Assembly: GCA_963796105.1 (NCBI GenBank)
Contig: CAWCKJ010000004.1
Location: 1,216,001 to 1,280,000 of the forward strand
DNA length: 64,000 bases
Source of the DNA: a candidate division FCPU426 bacterium
Lineage (GTDB): Bacteria > Oederibacteriota > Muellerivitia > Muellerivitales > Muellerivitaceae
Direction of reading: 5' to 3'
The position numbers and the translations under genes are program-made. The notes under the pieces are model-generated. The model was not told the DNA's origin, searched no databases, and was given only the letters and a program-made list of their open reading frames with translations. The number at the start of each line of letters is the position of its first letter. Position 1 is the stretch's first letter. Below are positions 7,654 to 31,071 of this stretch, in pieces.

Positions 7654-10600
7654 ATGGTGTTGAAAAATTTCTTAAAAAGAAACAATTTTCAGTCTTTCCA
7701 CGCCGTCCACTTCCGCGGGATGGTTCCCATTCTCTTGTTCGCCCTATTGTCCCTGCCTTCTTCTTTATTATCCCAAACCTATACGTGGAGCAACGTTACG
7801 GTGCCTGCCGGGGGATTTGTGGCAGGCATTGATTACAGCCCCGTTTCCCAGGGTCTTCTTTACGCCCGCACCGACATGGGCGGTTTTTACCGTTGGGATA
7901 ACACTAACAGTGTCTGGATCCCCTTAACCGACATGTACGGGACCAGCCAATACACTTATTTCGGCGGGGAAAGCATCGCCCCCGATCCCAAGAACGGCAA
8001 TGTGGTCTACGCCGCGGCGGGAATGTATGAGACAAACGGCGACGGCGTCATCCTCAGTTCCACCAACCAAGGCAACAGTTGGACCGTCAACACCATCGCC
8101 GTTTCCATGGGAGGGAACAACGACGGGCGCGAGGCCGGGGAACGCCTGGCGGTGGATCCCAACCTGACCTCCACCCTTTATTTTGCCTCCCGTAGCCAGG
8201 GTCTTTGGAAAAGCACCAACACCGCGGCAAGCTGGGCTCAAATTTCCTTCCCTGTAAACGGCGACGCCGGGTACGGCCTGAGTTACGTTATCTTCGACAC
8301 CCACGGCACTTCCGGCACGGCTTCCGCGACCATCTATGTCGGGGTGGATGCCATGAACTCAGGGAACAGCAATCTCTACCGGTCCACGAACGCCGGCTCC
8401 AGTTGGACCCTCATCACCGGCGGCCCCACCAACATGATCACTCCCCACGCCTCCCTCGGAACCGACGGAACTTTGTGGGTCGTTTATGACAGCGGCGGAT
8501 ACGGCCCCAACAACATCACCACCGGGCAGGTTTGGAAGCTGAACACAGCCACCCTGGCCTGGACGAATGTCACCCCGCCGGGCCCAGCCGGCGGAAGCGG
8601 AGGTTACGGCGGGATTTGCGTGGACTCGGAAAGCGTCAGCCATGTGGTGGTTTCCACCCTGGATTGGTGGGGCGGGCCGGACAAAATCTTCAATACCACA
8701 AACGCCGGGAGCGCATGGACCACCATCGGAAACGAGAACGTCGGTTGGAACGCGGCTCCTTTCGCCACGTACAACCTCAACAGCGCTGAATGGACCCTTT
8801 TCTGCGGAACCAACGCTGGAGGAACTGGCTGGCAGGGGGATGTCAAGATCGACCCCTTCAATTCCAACAACGCCATCTACACGACGGGCGGCGGGGTTTG
8901 GAGCAGCACGGATATCCTCAACGCCACGACGTCCGCCATCACCTGGACCTTCACCGACTACGGCCTGGAAGAAACCGCGGTGACGGACATGATCACTTCG
9001 GCGCCCGGCGGGATTTTTTTCAGCGCTTTCGGCGATATCGGCGGTATGCGCCATCCCAACCTGACACAATCCCCCTCGCTTGGAATGTACTGTACCCCCG
9101 AATTCACCAATACGAACGGCATCGATTTCGCCGAATCCGCCCCCAATACGCTGGTGCGGGTTGGAAACTCGGGCGCCATCACGACGGACGGCGCCTACTC
9201 GACGAATAACGGCCAGTCGTGGACCGCCATGGCGACCCTTCCGGAAACGGCGTATAACGAAATGCAATCCGTGGCCATTTCCGCGAACGGTCTAACGATA
9301 TTAGCGGTTCCCTACAGTGGGCATGGGAATCCCAGTTATTCCAGTAATTTCGGCTCCAGTTGGACGGCCAGTTCGGGTCTTCCCGCGGGGGCCCAAATCG
9401 CCTCGGACAGGGTTGATTCGAATATTTTCTACGGCCTTTCCGGCACGACCCTTTATGTCAGCACCAACGGCGGGTCCAGCTTCTCCAGCGCGGGGACCTA
9501 CGCGGGAAGCATCTCTTGGGATAACCGGCCCCGGCCCGTTTTTGGGATCGCCGGAGAAGTTTGGGTGCCAACCAGTACCGGCCTTTATCGTTTCACGAAT
9601 GTGGGCCTTGGCACGGTCACCACCACCCAAATCGCGAATGTTTCCAACGCCATCAATGTGGGTTTCGGCAAAGCCGACACCGGCTACACCCACCCGGCGG
9701 TATACCTGGTTGGGACAGTGAGCGGAACTTACGGTTTCTTCCGTTGCGACGACGGGGTCGGCACCACTTGGACCCGCATCAATGACGCCAACCACCAGTT
9801 CGGCGCCGCTGAGTTCGCCGCGGGGGATGAGACAGTTTACGGGCGGATGTACGTTGGGACGAACGGCCGGGGCATACTTCACGGTGATATCTCCACTTCA
9901 GGCAACACCCCGACATTTACCTTTACCCCGACCCGGACTTTTTCCCCTACAGCAACAGGCACTTCAACCTATACCCGTACCAACACTCCGACCAGCACGC
10001 TCACGAATACTCCCACCAGAACTTTTTCCCCCACGGCGACTTTGACCAGCACCCCCACCAGGACTTTCACCCCGACATCCACCATCACGAACACTCAAAC
10101 CAACACTTCGACGAATACCAGGACGAATACGCCGACTAACACTTCCACCCCAACGCCGACCCTGACTTCCACTAATACCCGGACTAATACCCCGACTTAT
10201 TCAGTAACCAACACTCCCACAAATACCGCGACTAGCACCCCTACCCCGTCGCGGACGAACACCCCCACCAACACTTCTACCAATACGGCAACTTTCACCC
10301 CCACCCCGACCAGGACAAATACACCGACTAATACAGCCACGGCAACCCTGACGAACACCTCCACCAACACTGCCACCTATTCGACGACATCCACGTTCAC
10401 CCCAACCCGAACGAATACCGCCACCAATACCCCTACAGCCACATTGACGAATAGCCCTACCAACACCGCCACGTATACAGCGACACCCACTTCCACTCCG
10501 ACAAGGACAAACACATCCACCAATACGGTGACATTTACTCCCTCAAATACCCAAACAAATACAGCTACACCTTCAGCTACGCAAACTCCAACCCAAACAC

Positions 10601-13038
10601 GAACAAATACTCCGACCAATACAGTGACATCCACACCCACGAATTCCCTGACTAACACAGCTACGAATACGACGACACCTACGTCATCGCCTACGCTCAC
10701 CGCTTCGCCTTCGGCAACGCCAACTCCAACTCAAACCCGCACAAACACTTCTACCAATACGGTCACTCCAACCCAAACACGAACGAATACTCCAGCCAAT
10801 ACAGTGACATCCACGCCTACGAATTCCCCGACTAACACCGCCACAGCTACCCTGACGAACACCGCTACCTATACATCCACTAATACAGCGACATCTACTT
10901 CAACCCCAACTAGGTCTAATACTCCGACCAATACAGCGACAGCCACTCCAACCAGGACAAATACATCGACCAATACTGTGACATCCACATTTACGAGTAC
11001 CTTGACCAACACTAGCACGAATACGGCGACCGCCACTCCCACCCCGACCAGGACCAACACCCTCACCAATACGCCGACTCCGACGAACACGAATACGCTG
11101 ACAGCGACAACTACCGCGACCAGCACCTACACGGGGACCGCATCCCCCACGAATACCTCCACGATTACTCCAACCAGGACATCGACACCTACCTCGACGA
11201 ATACCTCGACTTCCACGGCAACATACACTCCAACCAATACTTCCACGAGCACCGCCACCTTTACCAGGACCAACACCCCCACCAATACGCCGACTCCGAC
11301 GAGCACGAATACGCCGACGGTGACACCTACCGCGACCAATACCAACACAGGGACCACATCCCCCACGAATTCCCCCACTATTACTCCAACCAGGACCTCG
11401 ACTCCCACCTCGACGAATACTTCGACATCCACCCCAACCCCCACAGCGACGAACACCTCTACCATTACGCCGACAAGGACAGCTACTCCAACATCCACAA
11501 ATACCTTGACTTCCACGGCAACATACACTCCAACCAATACTTCCACGAGCACCGCCACCTATACCAGGACCAACACCCCCACCAATACGCCGACTCCGAC
11601 GAACACGAATACGCCGACAACGACACCTACCGCGACCAGCACTAACACGGGGACCCCCTCTCCCACAAACACGCCGACGGTCACATCCACCAACACGTTC
11701 ACCCACACGCCTACGAATACTTCCACCTCTTCCCCGACTCCAACAGTGACGAATACGTCCACTAGCACGCCTACGGCCACGCCGACTAGTACATCCACAG
11801 CCACTCAAACCCCCACCCACAGCGCGACAGCCTCCCAAACTCCAACACCTTCTTCGACATCAACTGAAACACCCACGAGTACCGCTACCTATACCAGGAC
11901 CAATACCCCCACCTATACCTCGACTTCGACGAACACGAATGCGCCGACGGTGACACCCACCGCGACCAATACCAACACAGGGACCACATCCCCCACGAAT
12001 TCCCCCACTATTACTCTAACCAGGACCTCCACTCCCACCCCGACGAATACTTCAACATCTACTTCGACCCCAACAGAGACGAATACATCCACAAATACAC
12101 CAACATCAACGCAGACACCCACGTTCACAACCACCAACACGCTCACTCAAACCCCTACCAACAGCCCGACAACCACCCGGACTCCTACGGCTACCTTAAC
12201 CTCAACTGGAACACCCACTGGCACGCCCACCTCAACCAATACTTCGACCTTCACCCCAACCGCGACAATGACTAACTCTTCCACTTACACACTCACGGTG
12301 ACTCTGACTAGCACGCCAACCTTAACATCCACAAATACCCCATCGAATACGGCGACATCCACATCAACCAATACTTCAACGAATACCCCCACTTCCACCC
12401 TGACGAATACGTTAACTAGCACACAGACGATTACCCCGACGGAGACATCTACGTTCACCAATACTTATACAGGGACTCAGTCGCCCACGAATACGCCCAC
12501 TCTTACGCCCACGCCGACTAACACACCTACTAAAACACCCACATCCTCCAATACCCCGACCCCCACGCCTACCAACACGCCTACGCCGACTCTTTCTGCG
12601 ACACTCACCGCCACCACGACGGTCACGAACACGATGACCGTTTCGGCTTCGCCAACACCGACTTTGACACCTACACCGTCCCCCACTACCACCCCCACGA
12701 GTACTTCGACGAACACTCCTATAGCTACCTTGACGGAAACCGCGACACCGGTTGGGAGAAATGGCGTGGTGGTTTATCCCAACCCGGTGAAAGGCCCGGG
12801 CCCTGTGACGATTCAGATCACCTTGACGCAAGAGGAACCGGTCGTTCGGGTTGAGATATTCACGACAGCTTTCAGGAAGGTGAATGAGATTGATCGCTAC
12901 CAGGTACCGGCGGGAGTGATCCTTGTGCCCATCCCCCTGTCGGACAAGGCGGGGATGCCCTTGGCTAACGGGCTTTATTACGTGGTGGTTCAAACGCCCC
13001 AGAAACGCATGATTACCAAACTAATAGTTCTGAGATGA
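7654..13038 (+). CDS. GH74 xyloglucanase-like enzyme + ~950-aa Thr-X stalk + T9SS-like CTD
   Basis: YARTDMGG and GDIGG catalytic Asp motifs, [26 protein letters not shown]...LANGLYYV...KLIVLR. Confidence 0.9.
9901..12750 (+). repeat. Coding Thr-X low-complexity repeat (stalk/linker)
   Basis: Thr at almost every second residue for ~950 aa. Confidence 0.9.
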
Positions 13039-13176: not shown

Positions 13177-13566
13177 GTGGCTGGGCGGGGGATTAGGATA
13201 AGGGAAAGAAATGGGGAGTGTGGAACTAGGCGCTTATTTCCATTACCCTGTCCCCATTAAGCTAACCCAAACTGGCTTCAATGGAATGACCCCAACATGG
13301 AAAGAATCGTATCTTCATGGGCCTTACCCGCAATGCGCATGACTTTACATTTCCTGGTTTGAAACTCCTAAATCCCTGGTTTTGAAAGAAAGTCCTGCCC
13401 GCAGGGGTCGGAACCCTTACCCGAGGGAACATTGGTATAAAGGAGAGGGCTCTGGAGTAAGAAAAACCTAATATTTCAAGCGAATTTGGGCTCATCAATA
13501 AAAACGCTACCAACAATATAATGGGAATAAAGCGGCCACTCAAAAGGCTAATCTTAAGGAGGGTAT

Positions 13567-14130
13567 TTGGACGACCGGGAGTTGGTTCGGAAAATCCTCC
13601 AGGGGGATGAACAGGCCAAAACCCAGTTCTATCTCCAGCACAAGGAACGCCTTTACAAGGATAGCGTTTATCTGCTTGGTTACCGGGATCCGGAAGCGGA
13701 AGATTTGGTCCAGGAAACTTTCATGATCGCTTTCAAAAAGCTGCCGGAATTCGAGTTTCGGTCGGCTTTGGGAACCTGGCTCATGCAGATTTGCATTTTC
13801 CTTTGCTACAACCGGTACCGCAACAGGGAAAAGACGGTCGCGCGGGAAGAGGAGGAACTGGAAAATCTTTTACGCCCCAAGTCCCTTGAGGAGGCGGAGC
13901 GAAATTCCCGGGAAGATGACAAAACAATGAAACTCTGGTTGATCGACCAGGCTTTGGGGAAAATCGGGCCGGAATGCCGGGAGGTCGTGATCTTGAGGGA
14001 TAAGGAAGGAAAAACCTACATCGAGATCGGCAAGTTATTGAGGATTCCCCTGGGCACGGTGATGTCCCGGTTATCACGTTGTAAAAAGGCCCTTAAGGTT
14101 TTAATCGAACACATGATTCGGGAAGGTTGA
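13567..14130 (+). CDS. ECF RNA polymerase sigma factor
   Basis: AEDLVQETF, TWLMQI (region 2); EIGKLLRIPLGTVMSRLSR (region 4); RBS AAGGAGG, TTG start. Confidence 0.92.
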   Translation: MDDRELVRKILQGDEQAKTQFYLQHKERLYKDSVYLLGYRDPEAEDLVQETFMIAFKKLPEFEFRSALGTWLMQICIFLCYNRYRNREKTVAREEEELENLLRPKSLEEAERNSREDDKTMKLWLIDQALGKIGPECREVVILRDKEGKTYIEIGKLLRIPLGTVMSRLSRCKKALKVLIEHMIREG

Positions 14131-14131
14131 A

Positions 14132-14788
14132 ATGGCGGATTTAATCAAGAAATTTTTCGAGCGCGAGTTAAGCGGGTCCGAGGCGGACTCGTTGGGAAAC
14201 CTATTGAAGGAATCTCCCGACGATGCCTTGCGTTTCGAGAAGTTTTTAGAGGAACATTACCTGGCGACGGGGCTGCCATCCCCACAAGCGCCCCCCTCGC
14301 TTCAAAACCTTCCCGGGGTTCCGGGCGGCCTTGGCATTTCTGGTTTGAAACTTTTCGCGCTGTTGATCGCCGCGGGGATAGGCGTCCTAGCCTGGAAATT
14401 CTGGCCCGCTCCCGAGGCAGCCTCCCCCAAGGCCGCTTTGGCGCCGGTGGTACCGGTTTCGGAACTTCCGGCGAGGAAAATAACGCAATTCCTTCCCGAC
14501 GAGGCCAAGCCGTCTCCTGTCCCCGCCCAAAAAGCCGGCCCGATGGCGGAAGGGAATGAGCTTAGCGTGGTGGTGGAAGCGAAGGAAAAAGCCCTCGTGA
14601 CGGTGCGCGTCCTTGACGGACAGGGCGGGGAAATCCGCGATCTTTTTACCGGCTTCGTCCAGCCGGGCCGTTGGGCTTTCAAATGGGACGGAATCCTGAA
14701 CGGCGGCCAGCCCGCCCCCTCGGGGGATTACCAAATCGACGTTCAAACCGGCTCACTGCACCAGCACAAGAGCGTCCGAGTCAAATAA
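14132..14788 (+). CDS. Putative membrane anti-sigma factor with extracytoplasmic FlgD-Ig/CTD-like domain
   Basis: Starts 1 bp after the sigma stop; short N-terminal helical domain, one TM segment (FALLIAAGIGVLAWKFW), Pro-rich linker, WDG...APSGDYQI Ig motif. Confidence 0.7.
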   Translation: MADLIKKFFERELSGSEADSLGNLLKESPDDALRFEKFLEEHYLATGLPSPQAPPSLQNLPGVPGGLGISGLKLFALLIAAGIGVLAWKFWPAPEAASPKAALAPVVPVSELPARKITQFLPDEAKPSPVPAQKAGPMAEGNELSVVVEAKEKALVTVRVLDGQGGEIRDLFTGFVQPGRWAFKWDGILNGGQPAPSGDYQIDVQTGSLHQHKSVRVK

Positions 14789-14856
14789 TGATTGGCCCAT
14801 CGGGCATAAGTCCGTTCGCGCGTGACAGGTTTTAAGCGACGAAGTAATATAAATAG

Positions 14857-16299
14857 ATGACGATGATTGATTACTTTAAAAATCGTTTCCTGATATTCGC
14901 GTTCTTCCTTCTCCTCGCCAGCTGGGCCTTTCCCGCCTTCGCCCAATACAACGGGGACGGGCTCCAGGCCGTTTACTACAACAACCCCAACCTCACCGGC
15001 GCCGCCGTCTCCGAGGTGGACCCCAATATCAGCTACCGTTGGGGAACCTGCCCACCCCAACCGGGAATGCCGGTCTCCGGCTTCTCGGTGAAATGGACCG
15101 GCCAAATCGAGCCCTCTTACAGCGAGCCCTATACTTTCACGACCGACGTGACGGGCGGGGTGAGTGTCATTGTCAACGGCACTGCGGTGATCAGCGGCTG
15201 GACGGATGGAATCTTCCGGGGAATCACGGGAAACATCCCCTTGACGGCGGGGGTGAAGGTTCCCTTGGAGGTTGATTATTTTTTTGGGGGGGCGGTCACG
15301 AATTCCTCGTTCATCCAATTTGCATGGCAAAGCCCCTCCCAGGCTAATGTCATGGTACCCCGGGCTTTTCTGTTTTCAGGCAATCCGCTTCAGCCCACCC
15401 CCACCCCCCAATCCGCCTCGGCCTGCCAATCCAGCCCCACCGTGGACGGGGTCTTGAGCGAATGGGCCTGGAGCCCTCCACCGCCCTGGAACATGGTGAA
15501 TAAGACCGTCCTGGGCGATGCCTTCGGCGCGAGCGCCCAGTTCAAGGCCCTGTGGGATATGACCAACCTCTATCTTGGCGTGACCGTCACCGACAGCCAG
15601 CCCACCAACAACGGGGACCCGGATCTTTTTGAAAACTCGACAGTGGAGCTTTACCTGGACACCACCGACTCCAGGAGCGTCACGGTCACCAGCAACAATT
15701 TCCAATATTTCTTCAGGTGGAACGACTCGGCGGCCGTCGAGTCCCGCGGGAGGACCGCCGGAGTGAGCCTGCGCACGACGACGATACCGGCAGGCTATGT
15801 GGTGGAGGCTTCCATCCCCTGGTCCACCCTGGGACTAGGGTATCCCAATCCCGGACTGGTACTGGGCTTCGACGTAGGCGTGGACGTGAACCACAACGGG
15901 GGGAACTGCCGGGATGGGCAGTTGATGTGGAACGGAGGAAGCGACAATTACGAGAACGCGAGCGGTTACGGCAACTTGACCCTGGGAACGGCCTGCCCCA
16001 CACCCGCCTCCACCCCGCCCGCGCCCATGAACCCCTATGTGGCTCCCAACCCCTCGAACGGAACCTCGGTGAAGTTCGTCTACGAGATGGCCGAGGCGGG
16101 TACGGCCGACATCAAGGTTTGGAACGCCTGGGGTAACTTGTGCGCGGCGATCCACGATGCCCAACCCCAGGGGCTCGCTTCCAGCGTCCTGGATGTCAGT
16201 TCCTTCGCGCCCGGCCATTATTTCTACCGGGTGGTTTTGAATTACCCATCGGGCCGGCAGGATAAATACCAAACACAAGTTATGGCGATTAAGAAATGA
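14857..16299 (+). CDS. Secreted non-catalytic PA14 + CBM9-like protein with T9SS-like CTD
   Basis: GLQAVYYNN..FSVKWTGQI (PA14); TVDGVLSEW, LWDMTNLYLGV, YVVEASIPW, GFDV (CBM9_1); APNP...APGHYFY CTD. Confidence 0.8.
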   Translation: MTMIDYFKNRFLIFAFFLLLASWAFPAFAQYNGDGLQAVYYNNPNLTGAAVSEVDPNISYRWGTCPPQPGMPVSGFSVKWTGQIEPSYSEPYTFTTDVTGGVSVIVNGTAVISGWTDGIFRGITGNIPLTAGVKVPLEVDYFFGGAVTNSSFIQFAWQSPSQANVMVPRAFLFSGNPLQPTPTPQSASACQSSPTVDGVLSEWAWSPPPPWNMVNKTVLGDAFGASAQFKALWDMTNLYLGVTVTDSQPTNNGDPDLFENSTVELYLDTTDSRSVTVTSNNFQYFFRWNDSAAVESRGRTAGVSLRTTTIPAGYVVEASIPWSTLGLGYPNPGLVLGFDVGVDVNHNGGNCRDGQLMWNGGSDNYENASGYGNLTLGTACPTPASTPPAPMNPYVAPNPSNGTSVKFVYEMAEAGTADIKVWNAWGNLCAAIHDAQPQGLASSVLDVSSFAPGHYFYRVVLNYPSGRQDKYQTQVMAIKK

Positions 16300-17603
16300 A
16301 GACATTCCCTAGGCGCGGTTGGCGCCTATGTCTCCTCGCCTTTCTGGGAGCCATTGTTGTTATCGGGGTCAACCCCGGATATTCCCAGGCGTCCGCCTCC
16401 AACGCCGGGCTGGTTACCCCCTTGACCGCTTTGGGCGCCTCGGCCCGGACGGATGCATTGGGGTCGGCCTTTACGGGCGTCGCGGACGATCCTTCCGCGT
16501 TGTTTTTTAACAGTGCGGGACTCGCGGGCCTGGACCACGCCCAGCTCAGCCTCAACCACAACAGCTACCTGGGAGGAGCCTTCGAGGAAACCCTCCTCCT
16601 CGGGCTTCCCGCCGGCAATGGGGGCGGCTTCGCGGGGGCGGTCCAGTATGTTTTCTGGGGCAGCCTGGACGCGCGCGACACCTCGGGCGTCCAGGAGGGG
16701 ACATTCAGCGACAATGACGTGGCATTGAGTTTTGGATGGGCCAGGGAATGGGCCAAGGGTTTTTCCCTGGGCGTGGCCCTTCATGGCACCCAGCAAAAGG
16801 TGATGGATTCGATTTATAGCAGCTTCTCGGGAGACCTGGGGGCTCTGTGGGTCCCCGCCCCGGATTGGCGCCTGGGTTTGGCTTACTCGGGTTTGGGAAC
16901 GCCGGTCGCGGGCCAAAGCCTGGCTACCGATCTCAAGGGCGGATTTTCCTACCGGTTTAAATTGAGCAGGGTTGACAGCCTGTTAACGGCCTTTTCGGGA
17001 TTCTATGAACCCAACGGTGTCAGCCGGCTCCAGGGCGGGGTGGAAGCGGCGTTCCAAAAGAACTACTTCCTGCGCGTGGGTTACCAATTGCCGTTATCCG
17101 ACAACCAAATCATGGGTTTCGACAATTTCACCGCGGGTGCGGGCATCCGCTTGGGCGCCCTGATCCTCGACTATGCCTTTGTTCCCTATGGGGACCTGGG
17201 AACCTCCCACCGGATCAGCCTCTCTTATGATTTCCCCAACCCCACCCCGGTGCCGGCCAAGAGCGTCACGGTGGTGCTGACACCCATCCCCACTCCCATG
17301 CCGACGGCCGCCCCCTCTCTTTCCAAATCATCCGTGGAGGTGCGTTTTGAACTTCCCCTGGGAACTACGGTGGAGGTTACGAGCCCCGAAATCAGGACCC
17401 AGGTGGAACAATACGAAAAGGCCGCCGAAGCCAATCCTCACGACGCCACGGCCTGGCGGAATTTGGGGGTGGTTTATTGGAAGACAGGGCGGCAGGACCT
17501 GGCCCAGCAAAGTTTTGAGCAGGCGCTTCGGTTAAACCCCTCAGACACCAAGCTGAAGGCCTGGCTCGACCAGCACCAGGCAAACCAACCCGCGATTAGG
17601 TAA
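16296..17603 (+). CDS. PorV/PorQ-like outer-membrane beta-barrel with C-terminal TPR
   Basis: GASARTDALGSAFTGVADDPSALFFNSAGL N-terminus, FLRVGY, LDYAFVPYGDLGTSHRISL barrel end; TPR AWRNLGVVY...FEQALRLNP. Confidence 0.8.
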   Translation: MKTFPRRGWRLCLLAFLGAIVVIGVNPGYSQASASNAGLVTPLTALGASARTDALGSAFTGVADDPSALFFNSAGLAGLDHAQLSLNHNSYLGGAFEETLLLGLPAGNGGGFAGAVQYVFWGSLDARDTSGVQEGTFSDNDVALSFGWAREWAKGFSLGVALHGTQQKVMDSIYSSFSGDLGALWVPAPDWRLGLAYSGLGTPVAGQSLATDLKGGFSYRFKLSRVDSLLTAFSGFYEPNGVSRLQGGVEAAFQKNYFLRVGYQLPLSDNQIMGFDNFTAGAGIRLGALILDYAFVPYGDLGTSHRISLSYDFPNPTPVPAKSVTVVLTPIPTPMPTAAPSLSKSSVEVRFELPLGTTVEVTSPEIRTQVEQYEKAAEANPHDATAWRNLGVVYWKTGRQDLAQQSFEQALRLNPSDTKLKAWLDQHQANQPAIR

Positions 17604-17803
17604 AAGGTTTTAACTCTCCGATAAAAACCAACGGTCTTTTCATTGGTTTTTCGTTTCACCGAGATTTTTATTTTATTTTAGGGAATAAACTCCCATCCCC
17701 CCAACACAAATCCTTTGGACGGGTATGTGTTCACGCCTGAAAGCGGGAACGACTGTCCGGGGTCGTTTAAGGCCCCAACATAAGACAATTTGAGGGGGAC
17801 ACC

Positions 17804-20800
17804 ATGAAAGGTCGTCATTTTAGCTTGAAACGTTATATACCGGTTATCGGGACCCTGTTCCTATGGGTCCTCACCCTTGGATTTTCCTGGGCCGGAACCT
17901 GCACGGTGGACGCCACCCAGACGAACCAATATATCCATTGCATCGGGGCCTCCAGCGCCTGGAGCGCCATCGGCAGCATGGGTCAAGCCCTCTTCGCCGA
18001 AGACAACGTGAATGGTCACATCGGGATTAGTTCCCTTAGGGCCAGGATCGACCCCAATAACAGCTTCTCGTCCGAAGTGAACCAGTTGGCGACCGCCCAT
18101 TCGGTCAATTCCAATGTCCTTCTATGGGCCACCGAGTGGTCTCCCCCGGCCCAATACAAGGCTAACAACAACGTCGATGGCGGGTCCAGCAACGATACCT
18201 TTTTGGGCGCCAGTTCCGGTTCCCCCAACAGCGCCGACACAGGGTTGGCTTCTTACCAAGTCTCGTTCATCCAATATTGCCAAAGCCATGGCGCCCCCCT
18301 TTACGCCCTTTCCATCCAGAACGAACCTAACTTCAACCCCACTTATGAAGCCTGTCTTTGGACGGCGGGGCAGTTTGATGTTTACGCAAATGCTTTCCAT
18401 AGCGCCCTCCAAAGCGCCGGTCTTTCGACCAAGATCATGCTCCCTGAGCCGGACAACACGGGGGGGATGAACCTAGCCTCGACCGCCATGGACGACTCTA
18501 CCGTGGCCCCCATGATCGGTATCATCGGGACCCATCTATATGGTTCCCCCGATCCGGCGCCCCTTTCTTCCTACGGCTTCACCCATGTGACGAACCAGGA
18601 ATGGTGGGAAACCGAGATGTCCGGGAATTCCACCGATATTCCGGGCGCGTTGCAGGAAGCGGGTTGGATCCACAACTCCCTGGTCAATTCCAATATGAAC
18701 GCTTTTCACTATTGGTGGCTCACGGACCTGATCAGCGGCAGCAGCTTCACCATCAAGGCCTATGCCTTGGGCAATTACAGCAAGTTCATCCGCCCCGGCT
18801 ATTACCGCATGGGCGCGACAGCGGTGCCCTCTTCCGGAGTGTCCGTGAGCGCTTTCAAGAACACGAATACTTCCTCGCCCCAGACGATCGTTTTCGTCGC
18901 CATCAACGGGAACAGTTCCTCCGTGAACCAAACCTTTTCGTTCAATGGGGTGAACGTCACGTCGGTAACCCCTTGGGTGACGGATAGCAGCAATAACCTG
19001 GTCGCGAAATCCCCCGTGGCCGTCTCAGGCGGCAGCTTCACTTATTCCTTGACCAGCTCCAGCATCACGAGTTTCGTGGGCGTGGTGAGCGGCGGCACCC
19101 CCGTCCCCACCGCCACTCCGACGTTCACTCCCACCCCGATCGTCTCTTCCACCTGGCGAGTCAACGCCGGGGGGCCGGCCTATACCGGTACCACGGGCCT
19201 TCTTTGGGCCGCGGATGAGAACTACAGCGGCGGATCCACCGCCGCGGAGGGTGGGGCCGTCACGGGCACTTCCGATTCCACCCTTTACGATACCCAGCGC
19301 TACGGCAGTAATTTCAGCTATTCGTTCAACGTCCCTGCCGGCGCCTACCAGGTCACCCTGAAATTCGCCGAAACCTATTCGGGTGATTTCGCGAACGGGG
19401 ACAGGGTTTTCAACGTCGCCATCAACGGAACAACGGTGTTAGCGAACCTGGACGTTTACTCGCAAGTGGGCGCCAACACGGCGGACGACAAGGTGATCAA
19501 CAATGTCTCCCCCAGCGGGGGAGTCATTACCATCCAGTTCACTGGAACTTCCAGCGCGGATACAAGCGCCATGGTGGAAGCCATCCAGGTCATTCCACAG
19601 CCGGCCACGCCGACGTCCACCTTTACGCCCACTTTAACCCGTACGGGGACGCCGACCTTTACCGCCACTCCGGCGGTAACGAATACGGCGACCTTCACTA
19701 GGACGAATACGGCAATCCCTCCGACGGCCACGAACACGAACAGTCCGGTTCCGCCGACCATTACCAACACCCCGGCGCCGCCGACGGTGACAAACACCCC
19801 GGCCCCACCTACGGCTACTGGCACGAACACGCCTGTGCCGCCCACGGCAACTAGCACGAACAGTCCGGTGCCGCCAACCATTACCAACACCCCGGCGCCC
19901 CCAACGGTGACGAATACGCCTGCTCCGCCTACGGCCACGTCCACCCGGACGAACACCCCGGTGCCGCCGACGGCCACGCCGACCGCAGTGGTTTCGGGCG
20001 CCAGCTTTGAGGTGCAGTTGTTGAGCTCCGTGACGTCCGCCACTACCAACAGCCCCCACCCCCAGATCCAGATTGTGAACACAGGGAGCGGGCCGTTGTC
20101 CTTGAACTCGGTGACCGTCAGGTACTGGTTCAATTGCGATTGCACCACCCAAACCATCCAGGCCTGGGTGGATTGGGCGGGTTTGGTACCCAGCGGTTCG
20201 ACCGTCTCGTCCAACGTGAAGGTGTCGTCGCAGTCGACCACCCTGGGAGGCCAGACCAGCTACATCCTGTACTCCTTCTCCGGCAACATGGTTCTTCAGC
20301 CGGGGCAGGCGATCCAGGTGCAAAGCCGGTTCAACAAGAGCGACTGGAGCAACTTTACCCAGTCCGAAGACTGGAGCTACGCGGCCAACACCAGTTACGC
20401 CAATGACTCCAAGGCCACGGGATACGTGAACGGCGCCCTGGTATGGGGCCAGGAGCCCTCCGGGACAGCCGCCAGCATGTCGGTTTCGAACGTGGCGGTC
20501 CAAACCCCGGCCGCGGGCCAAGGGTTATCGGTGAAGGCTTATCCGAACCCCTCCGCGGGCAATGGGGTCAACTTGTCGGTTACCCTTCCCGGCAATGGCG
20601 GCGGGGTTTCGGCCAGCGTCATGGCCAAGGTTTACACCCTGGAGGGCCGGTTGGTCTGGTCCACGGCAATGCCGGCTTCTTCCTCTGGCTCATCGGGCAA
20701 CCGTGCGGTTTATTGGAACGAGAAGGACCTGTCGGGGAATAACCTGGCCAACGGTCTTTACGTTGTGGCGGTTGTGGTGAAGTCCCAGGGAAAGACCAAT

Positions 20801-20833
20801 ACCGCCACGTTTAAACTTTTGATTCTGAAATGA
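17804..20833 (+). CDS. GH30 xylanase-like enzyme + malectin + PT linker + CBM3 + T9SS-like CTD
   Basis: WSPPA, SIQNEP, WETE, YSKFIRPGY; malectin WRVNAGG; CBM3 VTVRYWF..RFNKSDWSNFTQSEDWSY..LVWGQEP; AYPNP CTD. Confidence 0.87.
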   Translation: MKGRHFSLKRYIPVIGTLFLWVLTLGFSWAGTCTVDATQTNQYIHCIGASSAWSAIGSMGQALFAEDNVNGHIGISSLRARIDPNNSFSSEVNQLATAHSVNSNVLLWATEWSPPAQYKANNNVDGGSSNDTFLGASSGSPNSADTGLASYQVSFIQYCQSHGAPLYALSIQNEPNFNPTYEACLWTAGQFDVYANAFHSALQSAGLSTKIMLPEPDNTGGMNLASTAMDDSTVAPMIGIIGTHLYGSPDPAPLSSYGFTHVTNQEWWETEMSGNSTDIPGALQEAGWIHNSLVNSNMNAFHYWWLTDLISGSSFTIKAYALGNYSKFIRPGYYRMGATAVPSSGVSVSAFKNTNTSSPQTIVFVAINGNSSSVNQTFSFNGVNVTSVTPWVTDSSNNLVAKSPVAVSGGSFTYSLTSSSITSFVGVVSGGTPVPTATPTFTPTPIVSSTWRVNAGGPAYTGTTGLLWAADENYSGGSTAAEGGAVTGTSDSTLYDTQRYGSNFSYSFNVPAGAYQVTLKFAETYSGDFANGDRVFNVAINGTTVLANLDVYSQVGANTADDKVINNVSPSGGVITIQFTGTSSADTSAMVEAIQVIPQPATPTSTFTPTLTRTGTPTFTATPAVTNTATFTRTNTAIPPTATNTNSPVPPTITNTPAPPTVTNTPAPPTATGTNTPVPPTATSTNSPVPPTITNTPAPPTVTNTPAPPTATSTRTNTPVPPTATPTAVVSGASFEVQLLSSVTSATTNSPHPQIQIVNTGSGPLSLNSVTVRYWFNCDCTTQTIQAWVDWAGLVPSGSTVSSNVKVSSQSTTLGGQTSYILYSFSGNMVLQPGQAIQVQSRFNKSDWSNFTQSEDWSYAANTSYANDSKATGYVNGALVWGQEPSGTAASMSVSNVAVQTPAAGQGLSVKAYPNPSAGNGVNLSVTLPGNGGGVSASVMAKVYTLEGRLVWSTAMPASSSGSSGNRAVYWNEKDLSGNNLANGLYVVAVVVKSQGKTNTATFKLLILK

Positions 20834-21050
20834 AGGTTTTTACAAACAGTTGAAGTAGTCCCCGGATAACCTCCTGGGGTACGTGAAAGTCACGCCAGTG
20901 AAAAAAAGAGTTTCCTGGCTGGGACTGAAGCGCTCCCCTGGAGGTTTTTGGGTTTCAGAACAGCGGATAAAGAAATACTACATAGAGTCAGAGCAGGTTG
21001 AATAAAAGTCTTTCCAAACGGGTTGAAAAGAAAATTTTAAGGAGTCGTGG

Positions 21051-23783
21051 ATGAAAATTTTCAAAGCAGTGTTGCCAAGCCTCATCATCCTGGTGCTGGG
21101 GGCGAACGTCTCCGCGCTTTATGCCCAGACCATTCCCACCTCGTTTTCATGGACATCGACCGGCCCCCTCATCAGCCCCAAGAATGACTCTACCCACAAT
21201 ATGATCGCGGTCAAGGACCCATCCACCGTCTACTACAACGGCCAATACATTGTTTACGCCTCCTCTGTCAACTCCGCGGGCAACTACGGAATGGAATACC
21301 TGCACTTCACCGACTGGAGCCAGACCGGCGCCGCGACGCCTTATTTCATGGATAGCAATCCCAATATCGGGAGTGGTTATCACACCGCGCCCCAGGTGTT
21401 CTATTTCGCCCCGCAGAAAAAGTGGTACCTGATCTTCCAGAGCGGCCAGCCGCAGTACTCCACCAACAGCGACCCCACCCAGCCCCAGAACTGGACCACT
21501 CCGACCAATTTCTTCGCGTCCCAGCCTTCGAGCGTGAGCAATTGGATTGATTTCTGGATTATCAGCGATTCTTCTAATGTCTATCTCTTCTTCTGCGGCG
21601 ATAACGGCAACTTCTACCGCAGTTCGACATCCCTCGCGAACTTTCCCAATGGTTTCAATACTCCCGTTATCGTCTACTCTGATTCCGAGTTCAATCTCTT
21701 CGAGGCCGACAACGTCTATACCGTCGAGCAAACCGGCACCTACCTGGCCGACATTGAATGCATCGGCAGCGACGGGCACCGATTCTTCCGCGCCTTGACT
21801 GCCACGACCCTCGGCGGCACCTGGACCTCCCTTGGCAATACGGCCAGCCTCAATACTCCTTTTTTAGGGGCTCACAACGTCACCTTCCAATCCGGCGTCT
21901 CTAGCTGGACCAGCGACTTCAGCAGCGGCGGGGCAGTGATCGACGGCTATGACTCAACCGATTCCATCAACCTCAACAACCTGACGTTTCTCTACCAAGG
22001 CGACGTTCCCAATAGTGACTCCTACAATCTGATTCCCTGGCAACTCGCTCTGGTGACTTCCAAGGCCAATACGACGACTAACCCGACCGCTACCTTTACA
22101 TTCACCCATACCAACACGCCTGTGCCGCCGACGTTCACTCCCACCCCGATCGTCTCTTCCACCTGGCGAGTCAACGCCGGGGGGCCGGCCTATACCGGTA
22201 CCACGGGCCTTCTTTGGGCCGCGGATGAGAACTACAGCGGCGGATCCACCGCCGCGGAGGGTGGGGCCGTCACGGGCACTTCCGATTCCACCCTTTACGA
22301 TACCCAGCGCTACGGGAACAGCTTCAGCTATTCGTTCAACGTCCCAGCCGGCGCCTACCAGGTCACCCTGAAATTCGCCGAAAACTATTCGGGTGATTTC
22401 GCGAACGGGGACAGGGTTTTCAACGTCGCCATCAACGGAACAACGGTGTTAGCAAACCTGGATGTTTACGCCCAAGTGGGCTCCAACACGGCGGACGACA
22501 AGGTGATCAACAATGTCTCCCCCAGCGGGGGAGTCATTACCATCCAGTTCACTGGAACTTCCAGCGCGGATACCAGCGCCATGGTGGAAGCCATCCAGGT
22601 CATTCCACAGCCGGCCACGCCGACGTCCACCTTTACGCCCACATTGACCCGCACGGGGACGCCGACTTTTACCTCCACTCCGGCGGTAACGAATACGGCG
22701 ACCTTCACTAGGACGAATACGGCAATCCCTCCGACGGCCACGAAGACGAACAGTCCGGTTCCGCCGACCATTACCAACACCCCGGCGCCGCCGACGGTGA
22801 CAAACACCCCGGCCCCACCTACGGCTACTGGCACGAACACGCCTGTGCCGCCCACGGCAACTAGCACGAACACCCCGGTGCCGCCGACCGCCACGAGGAC
22901 TAATACTCCCGTGCCGCCGACGGCCACGCCGACCGCAGTGGTTTCGGGCGCCAGCTTTGAGGTGCAGTTGTTGAGCTCCGTGACGTCCGCCACTACCAAC
23001 AGCCCCCACCCCCAGATCCAGATTGTGAACATCGGGAGCGGGCCGTTGTCCTTGAACTCGGTGACCGTCAGGTACTGGTTCAATTGCGATTGCACCACCC
23101 AAACCATCCAGGCCTGGGTGGATTGGGCGGGTTTGGTACCCAGCGGTTCGACCGTCTCGTCCAACGTGAAGGTGTCGTCGCAGTCGACCACCCTGGGAGG
23201 CCAGACCAGTTACATCCTGTATTCCTTCTCCGGCAACATGGTCCTTCAGCCGGGGCAGGCGATCCAGGTGCAAAGCCGGTTCAACAAGAGCGACTGGAGC
23301 AACTTTACCCAGTCCGAAGACTGGAGCTACGCGGCCAACACCAGTTACGCCAATGACTCCAAGGCCACGGGATACATGAACGGCGCCCTGGTATGGGGCC
23401 AGGAGCCCTCTGGGACAGCCGCCAGCATGTCGGTATCGAACGTGGCGGTCCAGACCCCGGCTGCGGGCCAAGGGTTATCGGTGAAGGCTTACCCGAACCC
23501 TTCCGCGGGCAATGGGGTCAACTTGTCGGTTACCCTTCCCGGCAATGGCGGCGGGGCTTCGTCCAGCGTCATGGCCAAGGTTTACACCCTGGAGGGCCGG
23601 TTGGTCTGGTCCACGGCAATGCCGGCTTCTTCCTCTGGCTCATCGGGCAACCGTGCGGTTTATTGGAACGAGAAGGACCTGTCGGGGAATAACCTGGCCA
23701 ACGGTCTTTACGTTGTGGCGGTTGTGGTGAAGTCCCAGGGAAAGACCAGCACGGCTTTCTCGAAAGTGTTGATCCTTCGATAG
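21051..23783 (+). CDS. GH62 alpha-L-arabinofuranosidase-like enzyme + malectin + PT linker + CBM3 + T9SS-like CTD
   Basis: SFSWTSTGPLISP, KDPS.VYYNG, APQVFYFAPQKKWYL, IDFW, LFEADNVY, FLYQG; tail near-identical to 17804..20833. Confidence 0.87.
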   Translation: MKIFKAVLPSLIILVLGANVSALYAQTIPTSFSWTSTGPLISPKNDSTHNMIAVKDPSTVYYNGQYIVYASSVNSAGNYGMEYLHFTDWSQTGAATPYFMDSNPNIGSGYHTAPQVFYFAPQKKWYLIFQSGQPQYSTNSDPTQPQNWTTPTNFFASQPSSVSNWIDFWIISDSSNVYLFFCGDNGNFYRSSTSLANFPNGFNTPVIVYSDSEFNLFEADNVYTVEQTGTYLADIECIGSDGHRFFRALTATTLGGTWTSLGNTASLNTPFLGAHNVTFQSGVSSWTSDFSSGGAVIDGYDSTDSINLNNLTFLYQGDVPNSDSYNLIPWQLALVTSKANTTTNPTATFTFTHTNTPVPPTFTPTPIVSSTWRVNAGGPAYTGTTGLLWAADENYSGGSTAAEGGAVTGTSDSTLYDTQRYGNSFSYSFNVPAGAYQVTLKFAENYSGDFANGDRVFNVAINGTTVLANLDVYAQVGSNTADDKVINNVSPSGGVITIQFTGTSSADTSAMVEAIQVIPQPATPTSTFTPTLTRTGTPTFTSTPAVTNTATFTRTNTAIPPTATKTNSPVPPTITNTPAPPTVTNTPAPPTATGTNTPVPPTATSTNTPVPPTATRTNTPVPPTATPTAVVSGASFEVQLLSSVTSATTNSPHPQIQIVNIGSGPLSLNSVTVRYWFNCDCTTQTIQAWVDWAGLVPSGSTVSSNVKVSSQSTTLGGQTSYILYSFSGNMVLQPGQAIQVQSRFNKSDWSNFTQSEDWSYAANTSYANDSKATGYMNGALVWGQEPSGTAASMSVSNVAVQTPAAGQGLSVKAYPNPSAGNGVNLSVTLPGNGGGASSSVMAKVYTLEGRLVWSTAMPASSSGSSGNRAVYWNEKDLSGNNLANGLYVVAVVVKSQGKTSTAFSKVLILR

Positions 23784-23837
23784 ATATCCTTAGGCCAAAT
23801 TGAGGTTTTAGACGGACCCAGCCTCATCTTGTAAGAT

Positions 23838-25679
23838 ATGCCTATGCCTTCTTCTCCTAAACGCAATACAAAGACAGATTTTCCCCCATTTGCCGGGGGC
23901 GCAAGGGACTTAAGTCTTACCCTTTACGTGCGCATTCACAATCTCTTCGCCACCTACTTGAATTTGAATTGCTTCTACGTTTCCGCCGAGAATCTTTCCG
24001 AATGGTTGCCCCTCTTCTACAGCAGCAACATTCTGCACAACCCCACCCACTACGAATCTCTCTTCGGCAAGAATCAGGACCGGGCCCGGTTCAACGAGTT
24101 GAACCTTGAACGTCTGCGCAGGGAACGGAAGACCATCGTCGCGAAGCACCGGGGCTTTTGCGACATCTACACGCCGGTGGTTGTGGAGGGAGTCTTCCGC
24201 GGTTTCCTCGCCTCCGGGTCTTTCGTGCGTGATCCCTTTACTGAAAACGAGATCGGCCGGCGATGGACCGACTTGTCCGGGCGCCGCGCCAATACGCCCG
24301 ATCCGGACTTCCTGGGCTACGCGCGCATGGCGCTCGACACGGTTGTTTTGTCCAAACCCGTCCTGGACGGGTTCAAGGAAGTGCTGGAGATGCTCGCGGA
24401 CTACCTTTGCGGCCGGGCGGATTCGCGAATGGCGAAACGGTTGGAGGATCTGCGCAAGGGATGCATTTCGCACGGATTGCCCCATGCCGTCTGGATGGAC
24501 TTCATGCTGGGTTTAAACCAGTTCCACCCGAGGGTGAACTTGGACGGCGAACCCAATTGGTGGGAGAGGGAAGAACTGGGGATTACGCGCTACCCCACTA
24601 CGGTCCTGGCAGTCACCCAATCGGCACCCAACCTGGAACGGTGGTCCACATTAGGGTCCATGGTCGGCGCCACGCGGCTTCAATGGGAAGCCCTTCGGGC
24701 GGCCCGTGAGTTTCCCGAGACAGTGGCAGGCCGGTTGGAGGATTATGGCGCGCTGTTCGTTACATCCGCCTTGCCGTCAAAGGGGAAGGTTCAGGCTAAA
24801 CTGGAGATTCGTGACCGAGCGGAAGCCATCCGACAGCGCCTGGAAAAGCGGACAGGGTTGAAACTGGTGGCGGGGATCGGGTCCACCCTAGCGCCCGGCG
24901 CGAAACTCGTGGAATCCCGTCTCCAAGCCGTGATGGCCATGAACCTCGCGGCCTCAACCGGCCGATCCGCGGTCTTTTACGAGGAAGACGCCCAAAAGAT
25001 CCTGCAGGGGAAGGGCCGTGGCCTCCGCCCAGCGCTCGCCTGGTTGAGAAAGGCATACCGGAGCGGCTCATTGAAGGACCGCGAGGCGGCCCGGGCGGAG
25101 TTCGTCCGCCAGGCGCTCCTCTACTCCCATGAGCGGCACGAGAGCGTCCGGGCCCATCTCTTGGAGGCAAGCTTCATGCTGATTGATTCACTGCGCGAAA
25201 TCACCCTCGACCCGGCCCAGGCGGAGGGCCTGGCGGGCCTGGTGGAGGAACGCCTTCTCCAGGCTTCCACCCTTCAAGACATGCTATCGGCCTTCCAGGA
25301 TTGGCTTGACCGAATCGGCAAAACCGGGGACCGGCCCATAGAGGGGAAGCGCCTGGCCCGCATGGAGGAAGTGAAACAGTATGTGGACCGGCATTATGGC
25401 GGGATGATCCGGCTCAAGGACCTCGCGGGAAAGGCGGGTCTTTCCGAACCCGCTTTCCTGAGGGGATTCCGCCGGACGACGGGGCAGGGTTTCTCGAAGT
25501 ATTTGCAGGCCCTGCGGATGGATGAGGCCAAGCGTCTGCTCCGTGCCAGCCCCCTTTCGGTCGAACGCGTGGCCCAGGAGAGCGGGTTCAATTCGGCCAG
25601 TTATTTCGTCCAGGCGTTTAAACGGGCCACCGGCCTCACTCCCGGGGCCTTCCGGGACAAAGGCAACCCTGCCGCCTAA
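23838..25679 (+). CDS. Long AraC-family regulator, paralog of 5666..7495
   Basis: C-terminal AraC HTH (RMDEAKRLL...VAQESGFNSASYFVQAFK); shared W.REE.G..R.PT and DYGA...TSA.P....VQA.LEIR motifs. Confidence 0.85.
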   Translation: MPMPSSPKRNTKTDFPPFAGGARDLSLTLYVRIHNLFATYLNLNCFYVSAENLSEWLPLFYSSNILHNPTHYESLFGKNQDRARFNELNLERLRRERKTIVAKHRGFCDIYTPVVVEGVFRGFLASGSFVRDPFTENEIGRRWTDLSGRRANTPDPDFLGYARMALDTVVLSKPVLDGFKEVLEMLADYLCGRADSRMAKRLEDLRKGCISHGLPHAVWMDFMLGLNQFHPRVNLDGEPNWWEREELGITRYPTTVLAVTQSAPNLERWSTLGSMVGATRLQWEALRAAREFPETVAGRLEDYGALFVTSALPSKGKVQAKLEIRDRAEAIRQRLEKRTGLKLVAGIGSTLAPGAKLVESRLQAVMAMNLAASTGRSAVFYEEDAQKILQGKGRGLRPALAWLRKAYRSGSLKDREAARAEFVRQALLYSHERHESVRAHLLEASFMLIDSLREITLDPAQAEGLAGLVEERLLQASTLQDMLSAFQDWLDRIGKTGDRPIEGKRLARMEEVKQYVDRHYGGMIRLKDLAGKAGLSEPAFLRGFRRTTGQGFSKYLQALRMDEAKRLLRASPLSVERVAQESGFNSASYFVQAFKRATGLTPGAFRDKGNPAA

Positions 25680-30936: not shown

Positions 30937-31071
30937 GCTAATTGAAGAAATATTTTGACAATTATTGGGGTGTCAATGAAACAACGGGGTCCCGAGAGTG
31001 GATCCGAATTTTTTTCAATTACCTTTCAAAATTTCTTTTTCACTTTTAACCGCCAAAACACTGGAGAGCCG

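Follow-up and report, generated by a model that had tools for sequence, protein, structure and literature searches.

A conserved ECF sigma/anti-sigma/barrel module upstream of GH30 and GH62 enzyme genes in an uncultured soil bacterium: a candidate trans-envelope relay

How might a bacterium with two membranes adjust its transcription to an insoluble polysaccharide outside the cell? The question is raised by four genes of an uncultured soil bacterium, a diderm outside Bacteroidota, whose genome (G000) spans 4.98 Mb and is 96.8% complete. These genes lie in a stretch of 64,000 nucleotides (contig C4, positions 1216001-1280000), hereafter called the window. They encode an extracytoplasmic function (ECF) sigma factor, a putative anti-sigma factor, a secreted lectin with a C-terminal domain (CTD) of the sorting type, and an outer-membrane barrel of the PorV/PorQ family with a tetratricopeptide repeat (TPR) tail. 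Loci from homology scans are designated by L-numbers; L001 lies on contig C12 of the same genome. The four open reading frames (ORFs) are as follows.

13567 to 14130, + strand: ECF sigma factor, 187 amino acids (aa), TTG start codon behind AGGAGG (Sigma70_r2, r4_2, TIGR02937)
14132 to 14788, + strand: putative anti-sigma factor, 218 aa (FlgD_ig match, AlphaFold2 model)
14857 to 16299, + strand: secreted non-catalytic lectin, 480 aa, with signal peptide, PA14, CBM9 and a type-A CTD-like tail
16296 to 17603, + strand: PorV/PorQ-family outer-membrane barrel, 435 aa, with disordered linker and C-terminal two-repeat TPR (NF033709, AlphaFold2 model)

The reading that we favor is that this four-gene operon is a cell-surface signalling relay similar to FecA/FecR/FecI and built from type-IX-secretion-like parts; we give it a probability of roughly 0.48. 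An earlier note on this DNA had proposed a glycan-sensing module here, an interpretation that is, as a whole, partly supported. It had described four tightly linked genes upstream of the GH30 and GH62 genes, and the spacings are exactly those it gave (1-bp gap, 68-bp gap, 4-bp overlap). Its domain calls (ECF sigma factor, FlgD-Ig anti-sigma factor, PA14-CBM9-CTD protein, PorV-TPR barrel) were all recovered with Pfam and NCBIfam models. All four genes are apparently transcribed as one unit. For an intrinsic terminator 3' of the barrel gene, a pattern scan found none, and only a weak AU-rich hairpin was seen there (z-score -0.37).

The conserved core of the module

The module is not restricted to the window. 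A scan with the barrel alignment, one genome per species, yielded 80 loci, which were scored with hidden Markov models (HMMs) built from the window's own paralogues. A sigma factor and an anti-sigma factor (both its N-terminus and its Ig domain) were found within 6 kb of 14 of the 16 TPR-bearing barrels. The two exceptions, L011 and L017, are truncated by contig ends: they have an upstream flank of just 964 and 212 nt, and L017 begins with an anti-sigma Ig fragment. Conversely, none of the 67 TPR-less PorV-like barrels had a sigma factor or an anti-sigma N-terminus nearby, 33 of them being flanked by 3 kb or more on either side.

The reciprocal test started from 20 anti-sigma places, 17 of them new. 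A sigma gene was adjacent in 19/20 and a barrel-TPR gene lay on the same strand in 18/20. Together with a partner gene X, three gene orders were observed: sigma-anti-X-barrel, sigma-anti-barrel-X and X-barrel-sigma-anti. In total, the module recurs more than 30 times. Judged from gene content, the conserved core is sigma factor, anti-sigma factor and barrel-TPR, and this comparison shows the TPR tail as the one feature separating sigma-linked barrels from ordinary PorV-like ones.

Three paralogous modules that differ in gene order and partner were detected by tblastn in G000 itself, the two extra ones in L001. Module B consists of a sigma gene, an anti-sigma gene, an NHL propeller-CTD gene and a barrel gene, whereas module C has a tiny CTD-only protein followed by barrel-TPR, sigma factor and anti-sigma factor. 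The module B sigma gene (L001 7748-8307, - strand; about 83748-84307 of contig C12) is apparently split into two overlapping ORFs in different frames, with region 2 in the ORF 7993-8307 and region 4 in the ORF 7748-8110; either the assembly is wrong here, or the gene is frameshifted or a pseudogene.

The distribution was then taken from a comparison of 99 genomes of the phylum with an anti-sigma profile. At E <= 1e-15, this profile has 1-9 matches in each of the 30 other members of the GTDB family to which the window belongs; most of the matches listed span the full profile, and partial ones occur in a few genomes only. Outside this family, full-length matches were found in this sample in only one genome, G042, which is from a distant family. 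There, one locus carries a sigma factor, an anti-sigma factor, a CTD-only gene and barrel-TPR; a second carries a sigma factor and an anti-sigma factor, then two TPR proteins, one with an outer-membrane barrel match. The co-occurrence of the genes that the earlier note had taken as a unit is therefore found elsewhere, both around TPR barrels and across the family.

Module proteins and their swappable partners

Gene 1 matches only Sigma70_r2 and r4_2 in Pfam and TIGR02937 in NCBIfam (81.6 bits, cut-off 42.9). In the NCBIfam scan no named equivalog model reaches its cut-off, and the protein scores as a generic ECF sigma factor.

The sole Pfam or NCBIfam match of gene 2 is FlgD_ig (residues 143-206, 39.4 bits, cut-off 27). 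An AlphaFold2 model from a 33-sequence alignment (predicted local distance difference test score, pLDDT, 75) displays N-terminal helices at 3-10, 15-27 and 29-45, with pLDDT about 90, a transmembrane helix at 70-89, a disordered tether at 95-137 and an Ig domain at 144-217. The gene starts 1 bp behind the sigma gene, and its product combines a short helical N-terminus with a single transmembrane helix; on this position and topology, and on its co-conservation with the sigma gene, it is regarded as a putative anti-sigma factor. An HMM of its N-terminus has only 3 matches in G000, all paralogues, and longer or fused forms of this N-terminus were not found, which is weak evidence. Searched against 1.84 billion representative proteins, the anti-sigma profile gave 295 matches at E <= 1e-30. 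More than 100 of the best 150, counted by reading the table, are single-stretch, full-length matches of about 200-310 aa, and the named relatives are annotated 'hypothetical' or 'FlgD Ig-like domain containing'.

The Ig domain is closest in fold to the Ig domains of the FlgD hook cap (E about 2e-4, 22-30% identity), PorZ being a weaker match (E 3.6e-3). An HMM built from the anti-sigma Ig domains alone was applied to the ORFs of G000 at E <= 0.01. Of the 53 ORFs that it matched, many encode large proteins in which the match lies no more than about 20 residues from the C-terminus (E 5e-10 to 1e-2). The anti-sigma Ig domain and the export CTDs are thus members of one sequence family, as the earlier note had claimed. 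A flagellar role of gene 2, for which its FlgD-like Ig domain could speak, was rejected in view of the transmembrane helix that precedes this domain and of the sigma neighbour; it is also countered by the match of the same HMM to cargo tails. The further idea that the anti-sigma factor mimics a secretion signal would need correction: the feature seen to track sigma linkage is the TPR tail of the barrel.

Gene 4 belongs to the PorV/PorQ family (NF033709, 113.5 bits, cut-off 90) and carries a TPR match at residues 371-420. It remains below the cut-offs of both equivalogs, PorQ (NF033711, 90.5 against 220 bits) and PorV (NF033710, 37.3 against 250 bits). In its AlphaFold2 model (19-sequence alignment, mean pLDDT 78.5), a signal peptide and short N-terminal helices precede 14 strands (83-312), a disordered linker (318-361) and four helices (364-430) that form two TPR repeats. 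Its closest folds in the PDB are the PorV chains of SprA complexes, 8gl6_F (E 2.4e-13) and 6h3i_F (E 3.5e-12), with FadL and TodX ranking behind them. In the standard topology of outer-membrane proteins, a barrel with an even number of strands has its N- and C-terminus in the periplasm. Because the TPR tail follows the last strand of a modeled 14-strand barrel, it should be periplasmic.

Gene 3 was expected from the earlier note to be non-catalytic, with two sugar-binding folds and a CTD, and was indeed found so: it contains PA14 (34-164), CBM9_1 (196-376) and a sorting tail (TIGR04183, 25.2 bits, cut-off 23, residues 395-460 of 480), and the Pfam/NCBIfam scan gave no match to a catalytic family. 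The tail scores 18.3 bits with Pfam PF18962, below the cut-off of 27. A PA14-CBM9 lectin occupies the equivalent position in L002, L003, L004, L092, L093, L096, L099 and L100, and is located behind the barrel gene in L095. With the window, this makes 10 modules, 7 of which are adjoined by GH30 and/or GH62. As for the others, L095 has GH9 and GH44 and L100 a malectin protein, and the downstream gene of L003 falls outside the scan.

Other modules carry other partners. A pectate lyase (PL1)-malectin partner, followed by GH28, is present in 2/2 modules of this kind (L103, L108), and LamG/DUF11 proteins behind the barrel, followed by PL4 lyases, in 3/3 (L005-L007). For the PA14-CBM9, PL1-malectin and LamG/DUF11 modules, the type of partner head thus tracks the class of the neighbouring enzymes. 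NHL propeller partners (L001 module B, L008, L010, L012, L107) have other neighbours, such as an S8 peptidase in L008. Bare CTD partners of 125-149 aa are found in L001 module C, L014, L102, L106, L110 and L114.

Two side observations concern these partners. In L103 (7194-9128) and L108 (4183-6471), the gene between anti-sigma factor and barrel is the catalytic PL1 with malectin; therefore a barrel-held partner can be an enzyme and not only a lectin. In L012 (2731-4617) and L025 (3409-5313), loci of two related genomes, an NHL-type module lies directly behind the flagellar hook gene flgE. Given these neighbours and the FlgD-like fold of the anti-sigma Ig domain, a flagellar link is possible for some members of the module family.

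Promoter motif and predicted target genes

ECF sigma factors are typically autoregulated, and their promoters combine a GGAAC-like -35 element, a spacer of 16-17 nt and a short conserved -10 element. Upstream regions of the orthologous sigma genes have a block in common that consists of GGAATAAA, 13-14 nt and ACACnAAT. Written as GGAAT-N16/17-ACACnAAT, this motif has a spacing of 16-17 nt from GGAAT to ACAC. The sites in the window and the enzyme genes concerned are the following.

13524 to 13553, + strand: ECF-type promoter-like site 5' of the sigma gene, GGAATAAA-N14-AGGCTAAT, a variant of the family motif
17682 to 17712, + strand: ECF-type promoter-like site 5' of the GH30 gene, GGAATAAA-N14-ACACAAAT
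17804 to 20833, + strand: GH30 (XynC-like)-malectin-CBM3-CTD enzyme, predicted regulon member (NF052681, E 2.1e-49, below its cut-off)
21051 to 23783, + strand: GH62-malectin-CBM3-CTD enzyme, possible regulon member (Glyco_hydro_62, E 1.3e-56)

The sigma-proximal site, about 15-45 nt 5' of the sigma start, is kept in the orthologues of L002, L003 and L004, and the AGGCTAAT variant of the window (AAGGCT(A/T)AT) is common to L092 and L096. The second site is located 122 nt 5' of the GH30 start codon. Orthologous sites precede GH30 in L002, L004, L093, L096 and L099; L003 has a site at the matching position (5314) behind its barrel gene, the downstream gene being outside the scan. L002 displays further sites 5' of GH62 and 5' of a second GH30-like gene. 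On the opposite strand of L002 (4949-4978, - strand), a full motif about 170 nt 5' of the sigma site is directed away from the operon.

Regular-expression searches of G000 gave a single match to the strict motif, 5' of GH30, and two matches with a relaxed -10 element, 5' of the sigma gene and 5' of GH30. The whole genomes behind L002, L003 and L004 contain 5, 2 and 3 matches. Nine of these ten are on the module contig, the tenth being an identical copy at the end of another contig, and the reversed-pattern control gave 0 matches in the same three genomes. With a position weight matrix (PWM), the two window sites rank at the top; this rank is circular because both sites are part of the matrix, and the non-circular evidence is that of the regular expressions. 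The GH62, AraC and lectin genes of the window have no upstream motif above the PWM threshold.

Altogether, the sequence gives good support to a regulatory link from the sigma factor to the adjacent GH30 xylanase gene. The ECF sigma factor is likely autoregulated, and its predicted targets are the adjacent xylan-active enzymes. The predicted regulon thus consists of carbohydrate-active enzymes, in agreement with the earlier note, the motif preceding the sigma and GH30 genes here and GH62 as well in a relative.

The 220 nt 5' of the sigma gene contain a GGAATAWW site in 12 of 16 further modules. In 11 of these 12, as read off the listing, the -10-like element of this site recurs in a second site 5' of a neighbouring gene. 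In paralogous module families the -35 element is kept and the -10 element differs (CACTATA, CACTAG, CTAAGT, GACTAA or CGTCTTATG); these alternative -10 elements recur 5' of neighbouring genes. The 9-mer GGGAATAAA occurs 164 times in G000 on both strands, against about 38 expected (a rough value, from length alone). This excess may correspond to the regulons of several related ECF sigma factors or to some other common signal.

Behind the barrel gene, the GH30 and GH62 genes are followed by a gene for an AraC-type regulator (window 23838-25679) of 613 aa with a long N-terminal part, directly 3' of GH62. A similar AraC gene, for 604 aa, adjoins the orthologous module in L099. Because such a gene adjoins the module at both places, the GH30/GH62 locus may have a second regulator. 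In addition, the 3' CTD-coding ends of GH30 (20736-20797) and GH62 (23686-23747) are identical over at least 62 nt, and the malectin-CBM3-CTD back half is common to both genes. This suggests that the C-terminal cassette has recently been duplicated or has undergone gene conversion.

Proposed relay, rival readings and known systems

To the domains, the co-occurrence and the common promoter motif described above, the relay adds a set of contacts and a ligand that we infer. By analogy with the pairs PorV-PorA, PorV-PorU and PorQ-PorZ, the module's own PorV/PorQ-type barrel would bind the CTD of the PA14-CBM9 lectin and so keep this protein on the cell surface. In the periplasm, the TPR of the barrel would meet the anti-sigma factor, an inner-membrane protein, at its tethered FlgD-type Ig domain; TPR and Ig domain each sit on a disordered linker of about 45 residues. 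Xylan-type polysaccharide on the lectin would alter this TPR/Ig contact. The anti-sigma factor would then be inactivated, probably through regulated proteolysis, and the freed ECF sigma factor would transcribe from GGAAT-N16/17-ACACnAAT promoters, namely those of its own operon, of the GH30 xylanase gene and perhaps of GH62.

Several observations weigh against this relay. The anti-sigma N-terminus, used as a profile of 15, has no credible match in the PDB (best E 0.037, to an unrelated CHAT protein), nor in Pfam, where zf-HC2 appeared at E 0.44 in 1/15. Since it resembles no known anti-sigma domain, the anti-sigma role rests on the position, topology and co-conservation mentioned above. The barrel is missing at 2/20 anti-sigma places; in L101, the sigma and anti-sigma genes lie among housekeeping genes, and L111 is an orphan. 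The window GH62 gene has no motif of its own, unlike its L002 orthologue, and a sigma-70-like TGTATAAT takes the place of the ECF motif 5' of the sigma gene in the NHL-type modules of L001 (module B), L012 and L025. As to the secretion system itself, the PorU sortase body was not found in G000, the PorU model matching CTD tails only (35 places), and the SprA_N Pfam model gave 0 matches in G000, but the SprA control matched in no genome. The related loci come largely from one taxonomic family; the counts are therefore not independent events. Finally, a lectin sensor is not general: in some modules the partner is a catalytic pectate lyase, a TPR protein or no more than a CTD. Because the partner gene is swappable, and sometimes catalytic or headless, only some modules would sense glycans, and the family as such would not. 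The glycan-sensing module of the earlier note thus survives in its core of sigma factor, anti-sigma factor and barrel-TPR, whereas its lectin sensor turns out to be an accessory.

The sigma factor might instead report surface assembly and not glycan, if the anti-sigma Ig domain and the partner CTD competed for the barrel or its TPR in a checkpoint of secretion or anchor occupancy. This would suit the homology of the Ig domain to cargo C-terminal tails and the several modules with a CTD-only partner (118-149 aa), and in Porphyromonas gingivalis a periplasmic CTD itself activates PorY as its ligand (PMC12152298). However, the partner head changes together with the class of substrate on which the neighbouring enzymes act, which is hard to explain were the CTD alone relevant, and the Ig fold is nearer to FlgD than to a solved CTD. 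We consider such a checkpoint rather unlikely.

It is likewise doubtful that the operon is simply co-regulated, with the sigma/anti-sigma pair sensing an oligosaccharide or envelope stress directly, the lectin and the barrel being mere regulon products and the TPR serving for anchoring or assembly. The four genes seemingly form one transcription unit with an autoregulatory promoter, the contact between barrel and anti-sigma factor in the relay is postulated, and Ig-type domains are able to bind glycans, all of which would fit. Against it, the TPR tail occurs on sigma-linked barrels only (14/14 with enough flank, against 0/67), the linkage persists through three gene orders and in a distant family where TPR proteins come after the anti-sigma factor, and ordinary regulon members are seldom so tightly conserved with their regulator. 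A chance neighbourhood or mis-called genes, forming no functional unit, is very improbable in view of the tight spacings, the 4-bp overlap, the more than 30 modules, the family-wide presence and a promoter motif that is confined to the locus in G000.

The relay can be compared with known systems. In FecA-FecR-FecI, a TonB-dependent transducer with an N-terminal signalling domain acts with a FecR-domain anti-sigma factor and an ECF sigma factor. SusC-like/anti-sigma/ECF combinations are described for the polysaccharide utilization loci of Bacteroides (PMC2709373). The present module has in common with FecA-FecR-FecI and the SusC-linked pairs a barrel with a periplasmic appendage, a single-pass anti-sigma factor, an autoregulated ECF sigma factor and adjacent nutrient-acquisition targets. 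The barrel is of the 14-strand PorV/FadL type here, whereas theirs is a TonB-dependent transducer with 22 strands; a C-terminal TPR serves as the appendage, in contrast to the N-terminal signalling domain of FecA; and ligand binding would be placed on a separate CTD-tagged protein. None of the four proteins has a TonB-receptor or FecR match in Pfam.

By analogy, the closest mechanistic precedent is the PorA circuit of P. gingivalis, in which a lectin-fold CTD protein binds PorV and signals through its CTD to PorY-PorX-SigP (PMC7712824, PMC12152298). Both combine a lectin-fold CTD protein with a PorV-family barrel, a relay to an ECF sigma factor and a CTD fold as periplasmic signalling element. 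The PorA circuit uses a two-component system, the general PorV and secretion-machine targets, whereas the module has a dedicated barrel-TPR, a membrane anti-sigma factor with its own CTD-like domain and enzyme-gene targets. No PorXY-type pair was present among the scanned genes beside the module (13567-25679).

The SigI/RsgI biomass sensors of Clostridium thermocellum (PMC6852018, PMC10328401), which use CBM and PA14 domains, resemble the module in their multiple paralogous pairs per genome, their carbohydrate-binding sensors (PA14, CBMs) and their connection with genes for polysaccharide-degrading enzymes. In SigI/RsgI, however, the sensor is fused to the anti-sigma factor in a single-membrane Gram-positive envelope and the sigma factor is of the SigI type; here, the sensor is a separate secreted protein beyond the outer membrane and the sigma factor a generic ECF one. 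The Dma anti-sigma factors of Bacteroidota combine anti-sigma part, disordered tether and 8-strand outer-membrane barrel in one polypeptide (PMC10927553, PMC13088901). An N-terminal sigma-binding part (a putative role here), one transmembrane helix, a long disordered periplasmic tether and an ECF sigma partner are common to both, but in our case the tether leads to a terminal Ig domain, and the barrel, with 14 strands and of the PorV type, is encoded by a gene of its own. The module thus looks like a split counterpart of Dma made from unrelated parts. A PorV/PorQ-family barrel as the dedicated holder of a CTD protein encoded adjacent to it, a holding that is presumed here, also has parallels in PorQ-PorZ and PorV-PorU of the type IX attachment complex and in the PorP-like anchors of type B CTD proteins (PMC10947112, PMC9143113, PMC5562754). 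The PorQ, PorV and PorP-like anchors are without a TPR tail and without a linked sigma/anti-sigma pair.

The earlier note did not recognise this architecture as described. Likewise, our full-text literature search brought up no paper that links a PorV/PorQ-TPR barrel to a sigma/anti-sigma pair, subscription-only papers and the supplements of ECF classifications being beyond its reach. The module is real and conserved, and is apparently an undescribed variant of trans-envelope ECF signalling. If the relay holds, a diderm bacterium outside Bacteroidota would sense insoluble plant polysaccharide across two membranes without TonB-dependent transducers, through type-IX-secretion-like parts reused as receptor scaffolds, and the PorV/PorQ family would have a regulatory role beyond the single PorA precedent. 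An uncultured soil lineage would moreover offer compact modular parts (sigma factor, anti-sigma factor, barrel, swappable sensor and readable promoter code), and its enzyme regulons could be predicted from sequence alone through this code. A broader and more tentative reading is also possible, in which a family of shuttles and anchors, PorV/PorQ, has been turned into outer-membrane transducers with a swappable CTD partner outside, a TPR gripping the anti-sigma Ig domain and a -10 code for each circuit. It would be the third independent invention of ECF signalling across the outer membrane, beside TonB-dependent transducers and Dma, and the up to nine profile matches per bacterium would stand for circuits that respond to different plant polymers.

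Giant ORFs flank the module at 7654-13038 (1794 aa), 25786-30936 (1716 aa) and 30955-35619 (1554 aa). Those of 1794 and 1716 aa are almost without Pfam matches, the latter having a weak FlgD_ig tail; the 1554-aa one lies outside the scan. Parts of these ORFs have a GC skew of -0.5 to -0.6, as expected for low-complexity stalk regions.

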